64,000 bases of DNA from an uncultured Actinomycetota bacterium (GTDB taxonomy: Bacteria; Actinomycetota; Acidimicrobiia; Spongiisociales; UBA5794), in contig CAVQRN010000002.1 in assembly GCA_963715255.1 (NCBI GenBank), positions 495,843 through 559,842 on the forward strand. The letters run 5' to 3'. The notes beneath the pieces are model-generated. The model searched no databases. It worked only from the letters and a program-made list of their open reading frames with translations, and was not told the DNA's origin. The position numbers and the translations under genes are program-made. This document shows, in pieces, positions 11,150 to 19,749 of this stretch. Each line of letters opens with the position of its first letter. Positions within the stretch are counted from its first letter, which is position 1.

Positions 11150-11287
11150 GGCGAGCCTTCCCGACCGCTTGTCTTCATCGTACGCCGCAATGACATCGCC
11201 CCCCCCCACCGATTCGGAATCTCTCTACGGTGGTCGCCACATGCAACTCTCTTGCCGACGAAGCCGGGCGGATCGGAGGTGCCGCCG

Positions 11288-11701
11288 TTGACGCACCGAT
11301 ACGCGATCGTCGAGCACACCGCCGACACGGGCATCGAGACGGGTGGGGACACCCTGGCGGACGCGATCGGCAACGCCGCGTTCGGGATGTTCGACCTCAT
11401 GTACGACCTGTCATCCATGTCGGCGGAGATGTCGGTCACCTTTGACACGGCCGCGGTGTCACCGCCCGAGCTGTTGGTCGACATTCTGAGCGAGCTTCTG
11501 CTGCGCAGCGAGACGGACGACGTCGCGTTCGTGGAGGTCCGGGTACACGAAGCTCGGATGCGGGCGGTCGTCGACGCCGCCGGTGCTTCGACACAGGGGC
11601 TTGAGTTGCGCGGCCCGCCAATCAAGGCCGTCACGTATCACGACCTCAGGTGCGAACCGGCCGGTGACGGCTGGAAGATCCGCGTCATCTTCGACGTGTG
11701 A
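11288..11701 (+). CDS. Archease (RtcB cofactor)
   Basis: [13 protein letters not shown]-terminus, [10 protein letters not shown]-terminal IFDV; directly upstream of rtcB; GGAGG before TTG 11288. Confidence 0.9.
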
Positions 11702-11748
11702 GCCGTCGTCCCCTTCCGCCACCGCACATGGCCTGGCATGATCGAACC

Positions 11749-13174
11749 ATGGAGCTGGACCGGAGCACCGATTACACGTGGACCATCCCGCGTTCGGGAG
11801 GTATGCGGGTGCCCGGCGTCGTGTTCGCAAGCGAGTCCCTGATCGTCATGGCCCGCGAGGATCGGGCGGTGGACCAGGTAGCCAACGTGGCTCATCTCCC
11901 CGGCATCGTCGGCGCCTCCTACGCCATGCCGGACATCCATTGGGGATACGGTTTCCCCATCGGGGGGGTGGCGGCAACCGACGTCGACGACGGGGGTGTC
12001 GTCTCACCCGGCGGCGTCGGCTTCGACATCTGCTGCGGCGTCCGGCTCCTCTCCTCTCACCTCACCGCAGCGGACTTCACCCGGCACGGAGCCCGGATCA
12101 TGGCCGGGCTTGACGCCCGCACCCCGCCGCGGGACCGGGAAGGGCGGGATCGCTCTGCGGGACTTGCTCGACGATGTGCTCGAACACGGCGCACGGGCCG
12201 CGCTCGACGCCGGCTACGGCACCGCCCGGGATCTCGACCGGTGCGAGGAATTCGGCACGTCCGCAGGCGGAGGACCCGACCTCGTCTCGCCTCAGGCACG
12301 GCAGCGAGGCGGGGGCCAGCTCGGATCCCTCGGTGCCGGGAACCACTTCCTCGAGGTGCAGGTCGTCGACCGGATCCTCGACGATGTTGCAGCACAAGCG
12401 TTCGGTCTCCGGCTCGGCACGCTCACGGTGATGATCCACTGCGGGAGCCGGGGCCTCGGTCATCAGACCTGTCAGGATCAGCTCAAGGTGATGGGTCCCG
12501 CGATGGCCCGCCACGGGATCACGGTCCCCGATCGCCAGCTCGCCTGCGTCCCGGTGAACTCACCGGAGGGACGGGCCTACCTCGGTGCGATGGCGACGGC
12601 GGCGAACTTTGCATGGGCGAACCGTCACATCCTCGCCCACGAAGCCCGCCAGGCGTTCGCTGCTGCGCTGCGGACCTCACCGGACAATCTCGGCCTCGAC
12701 CTCGTATTCGACGTTGCCCACAATCTCGCGAAACTCGAGACCCACGTCGTCGCCGGTGAACCGAAGAGACTGTGCATCCACCGCAAGGGAGCGACCCGGG
12801 CGTTCGGCCCCGACCACCCCGATTTGCCGGGCGGTCTGCGGGAGGTCGGTCAACCGGTCCTCGTCCCCGGCAGCATGGGGACGGCCTCGTGGGTGCTGCG
12901 CGGCGTTACCGGCAACCCGGCGTTCGATTCGGCGGCCCACGGCGCCGGGCGCCTCATGAGCCGGAGCGCCGCGAAGCGCCGGGCGACCGGAGCCGACGTG
13001 CGCAAAGAACTGGAGACGGCGGGGATCGCCATCCGCCCGGGTTCGGTGAAGCTCCTTGCCGAGGAGGCGCCGTACGCCTACAAAGACGTCGACGAAGTCG
13101 CGTGGGTCTGCGAAGCCGCCGGTCTCGCCGCCCGCGTCGCTCGACTCCGACCGATCGGCGTCGTGAAAGGCTGA
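11749..13174 (+). CDS. rtcB: RNA ligase RtcB (frameshift ~12130)
   Basis: [82 protein letters not shown]-terminal VKG across two frames. Confidence 0.93.
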
Positions 13175-13188
13175 CCGGCAGTGAGGAG

Positions 13189-13946
13189 GTGACCGATCGT
13201 TCACCAGGCAACCCTCAGGTTCTACGCGGAACTCCGGGACTTCCTTCCCAAGGATCGGCAGTCGGGGACGGTCACCCGTGTCTTCGACGCCCCCGGAAGC
13301 GTCAAGGACATGATCGAATCCTGCGGCGTCCCGCACACCGAGGTTGATCTGATCATCGCCGACGGCTGCTCGATCGACTTCTCCCATCTCGTGAACCGCG
13401 GCGACTACATCAGCGTCTTCCCCGTGTTCGAATCGTTCGACATCACGCCGATCGTCAAAGTACGGCCGGAACCCCTTCGAGAGACTCGATTCGTCGCCGA
13501 CAACCACTTGGGTCGGCTTGCGAGGTTCCTCCGCCTCCTGGGCTTCGACACGTCGTACGAGAAGAACTGGGATGATCCCGAACTCGCACGGATCTCGGCT
13601 GAGGAACAGCGCATCATTCTCACGAGGGACGTGGGCCTGCTGAAGCGAAGTGCAGTGACCCACGGCTACTACGTGCGAGCGGTCGGCGACGGGGCAGGTG
13701 GCCGAAGTCGTTCGGCGTTTCCACCTAGCCGTTCGCCTCGATCCGTTCACCCGCTGCATGGCCTGCAACGGAACGCTGGCCCCAGTCGCCAAAGAGGCGA
13801 TCGCCCACCGGCTGCCTCCCGGAACCCGCCGGAATTTCGACCAATTCAGCTTGTGCTCGTCGTGCGACAAGGTCTATTGGCAGGGAGCACACCATCCCGA
13901 ACTACGCCGGATCATTGCCGCCGCCCGCCGAGTCGATGAGAGGTGA
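13189..13946 (+). CDS. Mut7-C RNase (PIN-like) domain protein with N-terminal ubiquitin-like domain and Zn ribbon (frameshifts ~13195, ~13695)
   Basis: LRFYAELRDFLP...SVKDMIESCGVPHTEVDLI; RFVADNHLGRLARFLRLLGFDT; ILTRD; RCMACN...CSSCDKVYWQGAH; GGAGG before GTG 13189. Confidence 0.85.
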
Positions 13947-17251: not shown

Positions 17252-17494
17252 CGCACCATCGTACGCCTCCGCGGCCCCCCCAGCGTCGGTCAACAATCAG
17301 CGAACCACCGGCACTCCGCACCGATAGCCTCGACCTCGCCACCGGCGCGGGCGCGACCCTGCACGGAAGGGGCGGTCGGAGACGCACCGTCGGCATCGAG
17401 CCGAGAACCGCCTGGATCATCCAAGCGTGGATCGAACGACGAGTGACGCCCGGATCTGCCGGATGACGCCCCATTGCCGCCACCTCGGAATGAT

Positions 17495-17531
17495 TTATCC
17501 CACGCTTATCCGTTGCTTGGTAATGCATTAC
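17495..17531. promoter_or_regulatory. Putative regulator sites upstream of the cytochrome: TTATCC direct repeat and GTAATGCATTAC palindrome
   Basis: TTATCC at 17495-17500 and 17506-17511; perfect 12-bp palindrome 17520-17531 in an AT-rich intergenic stretch. Confidence 0.45.
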
Positions 17532-17580
17532 GCAGGACCAACCGATACTGACCGTGCGGTCGATATCGAGTCGCCAAAGG

Positions 17581-19674
17581 ATGGGTGATGTGAAGACGCG
17601 AGCAGCAGCCACGCTCACGCTGGGGGCGGCCCTCGCGTTCGGCCTCATGTTCATGCTTGCCCAAGGCGTTGAAGCAAAACCCCAATCCGAGTTTCTTCCA
17701 GCGTTCGAAGCCACGTACCCCGGCGCCGTCGGCAGTCGTATCGACTCGTGCACGGTCTGCCACAACATTCAGGGATCCGAGTACAAGCTCAATCCCTACG
17801 CCAGGCAGTGGAAGGAGGACGAGAACTTCGCCGCGATCAACAACCTCGACGCCGATGGAGACGGGTACACGAATCTCGAGGAGATCCAGGCTCATACGTT
17901 CCCGGGGAACGCGTCCGACAACCCCTCCACCGTCACCACCACGACCACGGTGCCCGGCGCCACCACAACCACGGCGGCACCCGGTAGCGGTGCCGCCATC
18001 TACCAGGCGAACTGTGCCTCGTGCCACGGGGGCAACGGCGGCAATCTGGTACCCACCACGCTCGCGCTCTCCCAGATCGTCAATGTGGTGAGCAACGGCC
18101 GGGGCACCATGCCCGGCTACTCCGGGTCCCTGAGCAGCGCCGAGATCCAGTCGGTGTCGGCGTACCTGGTCAACTGGGCCGCCACGCCCACCGTGACCAC
18201 CACGACTACCCCCGGCGCACCTCCCCCGCCGTCGCCCGACGGGCGGGCGCTGTACGGCGCGTCGTGTACAGGATGCCACGGCGCGAACGGCGGCGACCTG
18301 GCGGGAACGTCTCTGACCCGCAGCCAACTGGTTGGCAGCATCACCAACGGCACGACCACCGGTATGCCGTCCTACCGATCCACCTACAGCGCCGCCCAGA
18401 TCGACGCCATTGCGGGCTACCTTCTCTCACTCGCCTCGTCTCCCGCGACGACCACGACGGTCACCGGCTCCCCGCCCCCGCCACCACCCAGCGGCTCCGC
18501 CGTCTACTCGAGCCAGTGCGCAGCTTGTCATGGTGCGTCCGGTGGCGACCTGGTAGGACGCAGTCTCACTACCGGCCGGATCTCAACGGTGATCAACAAC
18601 GGCACGACGGGTATGCCCGGCTTCACCACGCGGCTCTCCAAAGCCGAGAGGGATGCGGTCGCTGCCTACGTCGCCGGCAAGGCAGCCTCCGGCCCGGCGA
18701 CCACCACGACCACCGTGCCCGGCTCGCCTCCTCCCAGCGGCGCCGCCGTCTTCGCGGAGTCGTGCGCCGTCTGCCACGGCGGTTCCGGCGGCGACCTCGT
18801 CGGGCACTCGCTCAGCGACGCTCAGCTCACTTCGGTGATCTCGCGTGGCACAGGTTCCATGCCCGCCTATGCGTCACGACTCAGCACGACCCAGATCGAC
18901 GCGGTCGTCAACTACCTGTCATCACTCGGGAGCAATCCCGCCACCGCCGCCACCGCCGCCGGCGGGACCGGTGATATCAACGCCGCGGCTCTCTACGTCG
19001 GATTCTGCTCGGCGTGCCACGGTGCTCACGGAGAAGGAGGCCGATTCGGCCCCGTCGCCGGAACGTCGCTCAGCCGCTCCGAACTGATTGCCCTCACTGC
19101 CAACGGCCGGGGATCGATGTCGGGCTACTCGGGGCGCATGACTGCAGACGAGATTGAAGCCATCGTCGGGTTCGTGCTGGCGCTTGGATCGTCCGAAGAC
19201 GCAGCGAGCATCGAGTCGGTTGCAGAACCCGGGACCCTGGGCGAACGCCGGTACACGAGCCTCTGCGCCATATGCCACGGCGCGACCGGCAAAGGCCGGG
19301 GCGTGGTGGCGAGCTTCGGTCAGGATCTCGACGCCGCCGAGGTGGCCGCCCTGATTCGGACCGGGCGTTCCCGGATGCCGGCCTTCCCAGAACTCACCGA
19401 CGAGAGTCTCGACGCGGTCGTCGCGTACACGCTGCTCCTCGCCAACGGTGACGCCACGGCGACACCGGCGGCGAGTGATGGCGGCTCTGGGGCGCTCGAC
19501 GGGACGGCACCCAGCGCGGGCAATCAGAACGCGTCGCTCGTTCACGATGTTCAGGCCGATGGCGGTAGCGGTTTCCCGACGAGCGCCGCGGCCGTCGTCG
19601 TCCTCGGCATCTTGGGCCTCGCGGGTGGCGTCGGGTACACACGGTTGCGCGCCTCGCGCTCGTTGGCGGGATAG
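17581..19674 (+). CDS. Exported, C-terminally anchored heptaheme c-type cytochrome made of tandem monoheme domains
   Basis: Signal peptide (...AQGVEA), 7 CxxCH motifs (17749, 18013, 18265, 18517, 18763, 19006, 19264), MP/MS distal Met motifs, Thr/Pro linkers, C-terminal TM helix plus basic tail. Confidence 0.88.
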   Translation: MGDVKTRAAATLTLGAALAFGLMFMLAQGVEAKPQSEFLPAFEATYPGAVGSRIDSCTVCHNIQGSEYKLNPYARQWKEDENFAAINNLDADGDGYTNLEEIQAHTFPGNASDNPSTVTTTTTVPGATTTTAAPGSGAAIYQANCASCHGGNGGNLVPTTLALSQIVNVVSNGRGTMPGYSGSLSSAEIQSVSAYLVNWAATPTVTTTTTPGAPPPPSPDGRALYGASCTGCHGANGGDLAGTSLTRSQLVGSITNGTTTGMPSYRSTYSAAQIDAIAGYLLSLASSPATTTTVTGSPPPPPPSGSAVYSSQCAACHGASGGDLVGRSLTTGRISTVINNGTTGMPGFTTRLSKAERDAVAAYVAGKAASGPATTTTTVPGSPPPSGAAVFAESCAVCHGGSGGDLVGHSLSDAQLTSVISRGTGSMPAYASRLSTTQIDAVVNYLSSLGSNPATAATAAGGTGDINAAALYVGFCSACHGAHGEGGRFGPVAGTSLSRSELIALTANGRGSMSGYSGRMTADEIEAIVGFVLALGSSEDAASIESVAEPGTLGERRYTSLCAICHGATGKGRGVVASFGQDLDAAEVAALIRTGRSRMPAFPELTDESLDAVVAYTLLLANGDATATPAASDGGSGALDGTAPSAGNQNASLVHDVQADGGSGFPTSAAAVVVLGILGLAGGVGYTRLRASRSLAG

Positions 19675-19718: not shown

Positions 19719-19749
19719 CACGATGAGGCCCACGCGGGGCCTCATCGTG
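19719..19749. terminator. Bidirectional hairpin terminator between convergent genes
   Basis: CACGATGAGGCCC-acgcg-GGGCCTCATCGTG, 13-bp perfect inverted repeat. Confidence 0.7.

Follow-up and report, generated by a model that had tools for sequence, protein, structure and literature searches.

A putative membrane-tethered string of class I hemes with a temptin-like head as a candidate electron relay in an uncultured member of the Acidimicrobiia

Introduction

A 64,000-nucleotide (nt) stretch of contig CAVQRN010000002.1, from the assembly of an uncultured Actinomycetota bacterium (GCA_963715255.1; 2.35 Mb, 82% complete), contains a gene for a multiheme protein that raises a simple question: where would the electrons on its hemes come from, and where would they go? 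The gene, hereafter the string gene, occupies positions 17581-19674 of the forward strand of this stretch (the window) as a single open reading frame of 697 residues, with seven CxxCH heme-binding motifs at residues 57, 145, 229, 313, 395, 476, and 562. The explanation we favor, at a probability of about one in two, is that the string protein is a tethered electron relay running from a membrane quinol oxidase through a terminal head domain to an external acceptor. Electron transfer across the wall of monoderm bacteria is poorly known, and the papers searched contain no description of sediment Acidimicrobiia as metal respirers. A heme string that a single gene encodes and a helix anchors in the membrane, with ties to ImcH-like and Rieske/cytochrome b complexes, is a concrete and expressible candidate. 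Genes were called throughout with a simple in-house caller.

Domain architecture of the string protein

The heme motifs follow one another at intervals of 264, 252, 252, 246, 243, and 258 nt, and none of 20,000 shuffles contained more than one CxxCH. An earlier reading of the locus, made without database searches (the sequence-only reading), had described seven such motifs, six of them in repeats spaced 243-258 nt, together with a signal peptide, a Ca-binding-like loop, and a C-terminal FPTSA, transmembrane helix, and basic tail; every one of these elements was seen. The predicted Sec signal peptide (17581..17676, forward strand, as are all the parts that follow), assigned from sequence and hydropathy, would be cut after V-E-A (residue 32), and a lipobox cysteine is absent, no Cys lying ahead of the first heme motif. 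Translation more likely begins at the GTG at 17590, the upstream ATG being missing in genus-mates. The mature protein opens with an 84-residue head, or tip, a temptin-like domain with a heme c motif and a Ca loop (17677..17928), whose CxxCH lies at 17749-17763 and whose DxDxDG..N..E loop at 17848-17883 reads DADGDGYTNLEE (residues 90-101). Six class I monoheme domains, here called beads, come next: bead 1 (17983..18177; His149/Met177), bead 2 (18235..18435; His233/Met262), bead 3 (18490..18684; His317/Met345), bead 4 (18736..18930; His399/Met427), bead 5 (18976..19188; His480/Met513), which is of a longer c6/c553-like subtype, and the membrane-proximal bead 6 (19234..19443; His566/Met599). A disordered acidic stalk of about 43 residues (19444..19572; predicted local distance difference test score, pLDDT, about 30) leads to the predicted single-pass membrane anchor (19573..19674), composed of FPTSA (residues 665-669), a hydrophobic transmembrane helix at about residues 669-686, a basic cytoplasmic tail, and the stop codon.

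Pfam PF13442 matches six stretches of the protein. The methionine sits 28-33 residues after the histidine in each bead and is kept in 352 of 353 beads of the family, in agreement with the class I His/Met assignment made earlier. The beads are 28-49% identical to one another. Combined Thr and Pro content reaches 59-68% in linkers 1-4, where the earlier description of Thr/Pro linkers holds, and drops to 27% and 7% in the last two, where it does not. In an AlphaFold2 model of the mature protein (76 sequences) each domain is well folded, the predicted template modeling score (pTM) is 0.30, and all linkers have a pLDDT below 50; on account of this low score and the low-confidence linkers, the model presents the beads as independent domains on flexible linkers. 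Fully stretched, the linkers would span 35 nm and the stalk 15 nm.

When compared with solved structures, the whole protein matched cytochrome c6 first, while bead 2 alone matched, if weakly, domain I of the Geobacter cytochrome PgcA first (8QJ6) and 8QJG fourth, with E values of 1.1e-4 and 8.4e-4 for PgcA domains I and II. Beads 5 and 6 gave tied structural matches to cytochrome c6, c553, QcrC, CcoP, and OmcF domains (Z of about 10-11). A quick bead tree (73 columns, half of its forks open) suggests position-specific bead types and local duplications; it carries no further conclusion. The ratio of nonsynonymous to synonymous substitution rates (dN/dS) of the whole gene is 0.23-0.25 against two genus-mates, which indicates purifying selection, and by part it amounts to 0.09-0.13 in the head, 0.15 in beads 1-4, 0.36-0.44 in beads 5-6, and 0.5-0.6 in the stalk.

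Variation among relatives and anchoring

A search for proteins of similar length gave 149 matches; among the best 120 of these, 90 carried the head, and 88 were analyzed. The total number of heme motifs was four in 16 of these relatives, five in 21, six in 30, and seven in 21, some records being partial, which bears out the earlier expectation that bead number varies among homologues. Whole beads are gained or lost between relatives. For example, bead 4 is absent as a unit from the 80%-identical relative P0011, and P0013 and P0014 are identical save for one extra identical bead, which may be an assembly artefact. This variation by whole units fits a length-adjustable relay rather than a fixed heme array. 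Strings with up to nine beads and another head also occur (L225:7024-10509, L226:7058-10852, P0075, P0080, P0081, P0110). The alternative head of the L225/L226 type has a CxxCH about 19 residues past the signal cut, a beta-rich domain, and PKD repeats, and its genes are without the four-repeat operator described below; string heads appear swappable.

The C-terminal membrane helix is present in 86 of the 88 relatives. The proposal that FPTSA serves as a sortase-type anchor was discarded, as LPxTG or LAxTG occurs in 0 of 86 family C-termini; the loose pattern [LIVF]Px[TS][GA] occurs in 12 of 86. The genome holds one sortase, and another of its proteins has a canonical LPVTG. Likewise, the idea that the linkers are glycosylated and span the wall found no support. 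PF02366, the actinobacterial O-mannosyltransferase family, was detected neither here (genome 82% complete) nor in string-bearing relatives (61 genomes searched), weak partial matches in 10 of the 61 relatives were all in genomes without a string, and this genome gave one borderline PF13231 match. O-mannosylation by Pmt is consequently unsupported, though the linkers may be glycosylated by another route. Of the 2172 proteins called in this genome, 48 contain a run of at least four Thr, which in most of them directly follows the cysteine of an ordinary lipoprotein.

Genomic context and co-occurrence with quinol oxidases

The sequence-only reading had the gene standing alone, with no partner or maturation genes nearby. 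That description is accurate within the window; it does not extend to the rest of the contig or to the family. About 159 kb upstream of the string gene, a cluster (G000:C2:348089-359831, L228) comprises an 8-heme frame, an FdnI-type cytochrome b, an ImcH-like gene, a 12-heme frame, and a ccm set. The 8-heme frame and the FdnI-type cytochrome b make up a split CbcL-like pair. The NapC/NirT protein of the cluster has three transmembrane helices, one CX3CH, and six CX2CH motifs, which is the definition of ImcH, a protein reported only in Fe(III) reducers according to the portions available of PMC6295460. Both ccmC and ccmF, within a full-looking System I ccm set, share this cluster with the ImcH-like gene. 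The presence of System I, not System II, in an actinobacterium, together with both Geobacter-type quinol oxidases, suggests metal or electrode respiration. Closer to the string gene, 24 kb upstream and 6 kb to the left of the window, lies a Rieske-cytochrome b operon (G000:C2:486376-489486, L227), in which the PetD-like subunit carries a fusion of seven class I heme domains. A second Rieske/cytochrome b complex, a cbb3-type oxidase, and the cytochrome cd1 nitrite reductase NirS are encoded on other contigs. In the NirS protein (G000:C3:134577-136526, L230) there is an additional class I heme domain and probably a lipoprotein signal, and no adjoining nir genes were called.

Co-occurrence was assessed in one sample of 301 genomes of the order, which are related, so that kin are not independent and Fisher values calculated on these counts exaggerate the association. 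The full-length query matched at least 17 genomes, the head profile 23, and head plus beads 21, the last being counted here as string genomes. The ImcH-like gene was present in 18 of the 21 string genomes compared to 46 of the 301 overall, and the PetD-multiheme gene, often near the ImcH-like gene, in 16 of 21 compared to 36 of 301. One or the other was found in all 21 string genomes, compared to 52 of 301 overall. NirS, with four of the 21 and 16 of the 301, was rejected as an obligatory partner. The string gene stood in line with Rieske-cytochrome b-PetD/multiheme genes in five of 24 loci (G067, G057, G243, G299, G281); G243, G299, and G281 were chosen after a hint of linkage and are related and of the four-heme subtype. 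Apart from this Rieske/cytochrome b subset, no conserved immediate neighbors were found across the family.

Upstream operator and surroundings of the gene

Four direct TT(A) repeats with an 11-bp period (17493..17536, forward strand) precede the string gene and are conserved in all 19 relatives examined. Repeats at periods of 9, 10, 12, or 13 bp were found in 0 of the 19, and shuffles gave 0 of 570. A matrix built without this genome scored the string site at 51 bits and no other site in the genome above 15. A candidate -10 element, GATACT (17544..17549, forward strand), is kept in close relatives in the upstream alignment and was missed by a sigma-70 scan. A 12-bp palindrome upstream was dismissed as an element, as it lies within the direct repeats and is not conserved. 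OmpR-type regulators typically have tandem 11-bp boxes, and the four-repeat element is likely an OmpR/PhoB-type response-regulator binding site. The Fe(II)-sensing BqsR box has the same period, as given in part of PMC4358008, a likeness that we treat as a lead only. In loci where the string gene closes the Rieske operon, the operator stands some 160 bp ahead of the Rieske gene, with scores of 18.5 in G243 and 18.0 in G299 and a weaker site (5.9) in G281. Head-only paralogues carry two repeats at 87-88 bp in seven of eight cases judged by eye, and the full site in one. The operator was absent from Rieske operons without a trailing string, from PKD-headed strings, and from the ImcH cluster. A search for the regulator gave seven Trans_reg_C genes in the genome, none of them beside the string gene or consistently beside head-only paralogues. 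These paralogues (L273-L282), common in string-bearing genomes, have 250-290 residues and consist of a head, a Thr-rich linker, and a small acidic beta domain, with an Asp/His-rich tail in some and half an operator.

The string gene is monocistronic. A gene of the nitrilase family diverges from it on one side, and one of the glyoxalase family converges on it from the other. Between the string gene and the latter lies a perfect 13-bp hairpin without a U-tract (19719..19749, no strand assigned; z -2.47, equal stability in three of 200 shuffles), which is likely a bidirectional terminator and matches the earlier prediction that the gene has a terminator of its own. RNA contigs of low depth from three runs of two studies (shares 0.06-0.18) match parts of the gene at 98-100% identity. 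They are too weak to count for expression, as one run also spans the nitrilase gene and DNA carry-over is possible. Elsewhere in the window, at 11252-13939, a gene is followed by two overlapping frames (11698-12759 and 11996-13174) and then by an out-of-register frame; we take these to be archease-like, RtcB-like (the overlapping frames), and Mut7-C-like genes. The multiheme genes at C2:354-367 kb are broken in a similar way, which suggests that the assembly contains indel errors.

The head domain

Run against 1.84 billion representatives (clusters at 50% identity), a profile of 11 heads recovered 2,746 clusters with an E cut-off of 0.001 and 1,143 with one of 1e-10, the looser set taking in Ca-loop-only repeats. 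The family is spread over many bacterial phyla and archaea. Among 131 head representatives, the Ca loop and the two cysteines and the histidine of CxxCH never vary, while conservation of any further His or Met does not exceed 42%; apart from Asn71 and the Ca loop, no conserved residue of catalytic type was seen. Most heads stand by themselves on adhesin-like stalks (PASTA, Ig, PKD, PGF-CTERM). In Hydrogenedentes (L016, L019), six consecutive genes each open with one head on a differing stalk.

The head model is confident (pLDDT 90.5). Foldseek returned no match at E 0.001, a second fold comparison reached at best Z 2.1 among 48,161 chains, where a further look found none, and a profile search of the PDB gave only EF-hand-like loop matches. 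By sequence and by predicted fold the head is thus without a solved relative, which does not in itself prove a novel fold.

The family nearest to the head is Temptin_C (PF24784), that of the Aplysia pheromone, the likeness being at the level of families. PF24784 matched 31 of 105 aligned members at E 0.001 or better and 10 of the 11 heads at E 1 or better (best 5.8e-10), and Atlas neighbors of the head are named Temptin C-terminal. The head of the string protein itself scored 15.3 bits (E 0.028) against a gathering cut-off of 27 bits. Prokaryotic heads differ from Temptin_C in their invariant CxxCH. A head from Bradymonadia (L083:2667-3734) combines CxxCH with the extra cysteines of the temptin disulfide, and this head looks intermediate between animal temptin and the bacterial heme domain. 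Membership in NF041762 (GEGP motif-containing diheme protein) was rejected, as the score was 51 bits against a cut-off of 300 and only the head segment is shared.

As regards heme ligation, the residue at position -4 relative to the first aromatic is small in 91% of the 131 heads, which places the signal cut in register. Using a crude cleavage picker, the first Cys lies exactly 22 residues past the predicted cut in 67 of 125 heads and 24 residues past it in the clade of the string protein (28 of 84); the first mature residue varies. Because no distal ligand is conserved and the distance from cut to Cys is fixed, the N-terminal amine of the head may be the sixth iron ligand. The two-residue longer N-terminus in the clade of the string protein counts against this idea. 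Several of the internal heads found in tandem in P0121, P0122, P0123, and L029 have a His near the equivalent place.

Relation to Cyc2

We compared the head with at least 119 Cyc2-motif N-termini from at least 120 loci, the motif being that given in part of 10.1101/228056 and the barrel being presumed. HHalign aligned the head profile with the Cyc2 profile at 97.1% over 39 columns, whereas class I beads aligned over 12 columns, the CxxCH only. With the Cyc2 hidden Markov model (HMM), 54 of 131 heads and 0 of 353 beads scored at least 15 bits, and with CxxCH masked the numbers were five of 131 and 0 of 353. The head of the string protein scored 5.5 bits, no better than the beads. The tie between the head and Cyc2 therefore appears modest and holds at the level of families. 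Like the head, Cyc2 and Cyt572 have a heme motif near a fixed signal-peptidase cut, an aromatic residue at mature position 4, and, at the level of families, a similar segment after CxxCH. In contrast, Cyc2 is fused to an outer-membrane beta-barrel, whereas the head is followed by helical beads and has a longer N-terminal segment and a Ca loop. The AxPxFAR[QK][TY] motif of Cyc2 is absent from the string protein; lacking motif and barrel, the protein was not assigned to Cyc2. As far as the available portions of PMC13692758 and PMC13741234 report, electron paramagnetic resonance shows two axial ligands in Cyc2 where AlphaFold 3 finds one, and the mature N-terminus of Cyt572 begins at the motif. 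In the Cyc2-motif loci (L094-L213), the motif starts exactly at the predicted signal cut. The N-terminal amine is accordingly a candidate sixth ligand of Cyc2, as judged from these N-termini.

Proposed function and alternative explanations

In the relay we propose, the protein would be exported by Sec, after which the Ccm system of the genome would attach the hemes. The C-terminal helix would hold it in the membrane with the head outermost. Electrons from menaquinol would pass from the Rieske/cytochrome b-multiheme complex or the ImcH-like complex to the membrane-proximal beads, would hop from bead to bead by tethered collisions, as in PgcA, to the head, and would be delivered there to an extracellular acceptor such as Fe(III) or Mn(IV) oxides or humics. 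The reach could be tens of nanometers, with a mean that, by analogy with PgcA, would lie well below full stretch. The free N-terminal amine would serve as the sixth iron ligand of the head, and Ca2+ may tune its potential; shifts of about 500 mV are given for Ca2+ near a heme in part of PMC11791136. The flexible tethered electron chain envisaged by the sequence-only reading is in keeping with the independent domains, the predicted export and membrane tether, and the ImcH-like and Rieske/cytochrome b quinol oxidases of these genomes.

Several observations weigh against the relay or its details. In this genome the string gene is monocistronic, a distance of 24 kb separates it from the Rieske operon, and the operator is absent both there and at the ImcH cluster. 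Adjacency is missing in 19 of 24 loci, and among the linked ones G057 has a different head with PKD domains and only G067 is of the long type. No string was detected in 31 of the 52 quinol-oxidase genomes, and co-occurrence across related genomes may only mirror a shared anaerobic, cytochrome-rich lifestyle. The least conserved beads are the membrane-proximal ones, at the expected partner-docking end, and their likeness to c6, c553, QcrC, and CcoP is a likeness to ordinary respiratory carriers. In 120 of 137 head-domain proteins, the head bears the sole heme and there is no relay, so that a head can do without a wire. For the amine ligand in particular, tandem internal heads (four to seven per protein) have no free N-terminus.

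Several other explanations compete with the relay, the first being an internal carrier. Tethered c550/c551 or cytochrome cy shuttle electrons as internal carriers, and the string protein could similarly be a membrane-tethered pool of cytochrome c that passes electrons from the Rieske/cytochrome b complex to the organism's own cbb3/aa3 oxidase or other reductases, with the head as docking end. The gene linkage with complex III, the resemblance of the beads to c550/c551/c6 and to CcoP/QcrC domains, and the cbb3-type oxidase, second Rieske/cytochrome b complex, and NirS of the genome are all compatible with this. We nevertheless consider it unlikely, since one or two domains suffice for a shuttle, where the strings have up to eight on long linkers, the PetD partner subunit already has three to seven class I hemes, the conserved and separately regulated head has no counterpart in known shuttles, and NirS accompanies only four of the 21 strings. 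The current might also run in reverse, the head oxidizing an extracellular donor such as Fe(II) and electrons moving inward to an oxidase, some of them uphill via the Rieske/cytochrome b complex. The alignment of the head family with the Cyc2 heme segment (97.1%, 39 columns), the BqsR-like operator period, and the ability of Ca2+ near a heme to raise its potential by hundreds of mV would agree with inward flow. However, the head in question scores 5.5 bits with the Cyc2 HMM, masking of CxxCH leaves only five of 131 heads at 15 bits or more, 11-bp tandem boxes are common to OmpR-type regulators, ImcH is reported only in Fe(III) reducers, and RuBisCO was not found in this genome (82% complete). 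Inward flow as a whole is rather improbable, and we would favor the outward direction over it by about two to one.

The remaining alternatives put less weight on transport. The head could act as an enzyme or a scavenger whose heme has a free or weakly held sixth site (for peroxide, NO, metal, or halogen chemistry). A stress regulator would induce it, and the beads would be its electron reservoir and not a respiratory wire. The lack of a conserved distal His or Met in 131 heads, the occurrence of most heads alone on adhesin-like stalks, and the operator or its half, which follows head genes including head-only paralogues and is absent with the other head, would all suit such a function. It is quite improbable in our judgment, given that only Asn71 and the Ca loop are conserved in the manner of catalytic residues, that the fixed register of the signal cut would offer a protein ligand, and that some loci are linked to complex III. 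A capacitor storing electrons during acceptor gaps, with no specific external partner, would accommodate a freely varying number of beads that are alike (28-49% identity), yet it leaves the conserved terminal head, the dedicated operator, and the cost of long linkers unexplained and is highly improbable. The tethered relay to an external acceptor thus remains our preferred explanation. A wider version of it, which we put forward as doubtful speculation, would make the protein the missing cell-surface outlet of extracellular electron transfer in uncultured Acidimicrobiia: a one-polypeptide wire joining complex III or ImcH to an exchangeable tip. This tip would be a cytochrome with a fold of its own, whose N-terminal amine ligates the heme and whose potential is set by Ca, and the tip, the Cyc2 heme segment, and animal temptin would form one superfamily. 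If true, the superfamily would also name the sixth ligand of Cyc2. A single head structure would show how the domain folds, whether its amine ligates the heme, where temptin came from, and, by analogy, what the sixth ligand of Cyc2 may be.

Comparison with known systems

Full-text searches, which included few subscription papers, found nothing on this string family, on temptin domains that bear heme, or on an amine as heme ligand in Cyc2, and found the string design for PgcA only, the list of PgcA homologues lying outside their coverage. The accessible portion of a genomic survey of UBA5794 actinobacteria contains no mention of iron or electron transfer (PMC12008989), and PMC7908018 yielded no relevant statement.

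Among ordinary respiratory cytochromes, CcoP, QcrC, c550/c551, and c6 share the bead fold and His/Met ligation. They differ from the string protein in having one to two packed hemes, N-terminal anchors, and fixed operons. The CcoP model gave 106 bits against a cut-off of 180 and QcrC 97 against 200, and the cut-offs of c550/c551/c6 were passed only by summing six repeats. With scores below these cut-offs, a monocistronic gene, and the cbb3 and bc genes on another contig, identity with CcoP or QcrC was rejected. Cytochrome f offers a precedent at the other end of the protein: its ligand is the alpha-amine of Tyr1, so its first mature residue ligates the heme, its topology is type I, and it is fed by a Rieske/cytochrome b complex. 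Tyr1 is named as heme ligand in part of PMC8557733. Cytochrome f has a single heme and a fold unrelated to the head, with no match by sequence or fold.

The closest counterpart is PgcA (GSU1761) of Geobacter sulfurreducens, and the string design, a precedent that the sequence-only reading missed, is already published there as hemes on a string. According to the portions available of PMC10570954 and PMC11520253, PgcA has three monoheme domains on Pro/Thr linkers, which tumble freely, exchange electrons transiently, and stretch to 18 nm; its terminal domain is the mineral reductase, and the linkers are dispensable for mineral binding. Domains I and II are His/Met-ligated with potentials of -48 and -65 mV (PMC10570954, in the part available). 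Because these domains, the closest characterized to our beads, lie so low, a high potential cannot be assumed from His/Met ligation, contrary to what had been supposed. The string protein and PgcA (PDB 8QJ6, 8QJG, 8QK0) share monoheme class I domains of about 65 residues, His/Met ligation, and unstructured Pro/Thr-rich linkers, and two traits of a heme-tethered redox string, namely separate monoheme domains with their own ligands and Pro/Thr linkers predicted to be unstructured, are present here. PgcA is a triheme lipoprotein of a diderm that is released outside the cell. Its N-terminal secretion domain, of about 190 residues, has no heme, its linkers are of the (PT)n type, and its third domain is bis-His ligated. 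In contrast, the string protein lacks a lipobox and has a C-terminal membrane helix, six all-Met beads, linkers of Thr and Pro runs, a heme/Ca head, and a host in the Acidimicrobiia. Orthology was rejected on the absence of lipobox, secretion domain, and bis-His bead and on the seven heme motifs. By its sequence, the string protein is a variant of the PgcA hemes-on-a-string, or heme-tethered redox string, design and not a PgcA orthologue.

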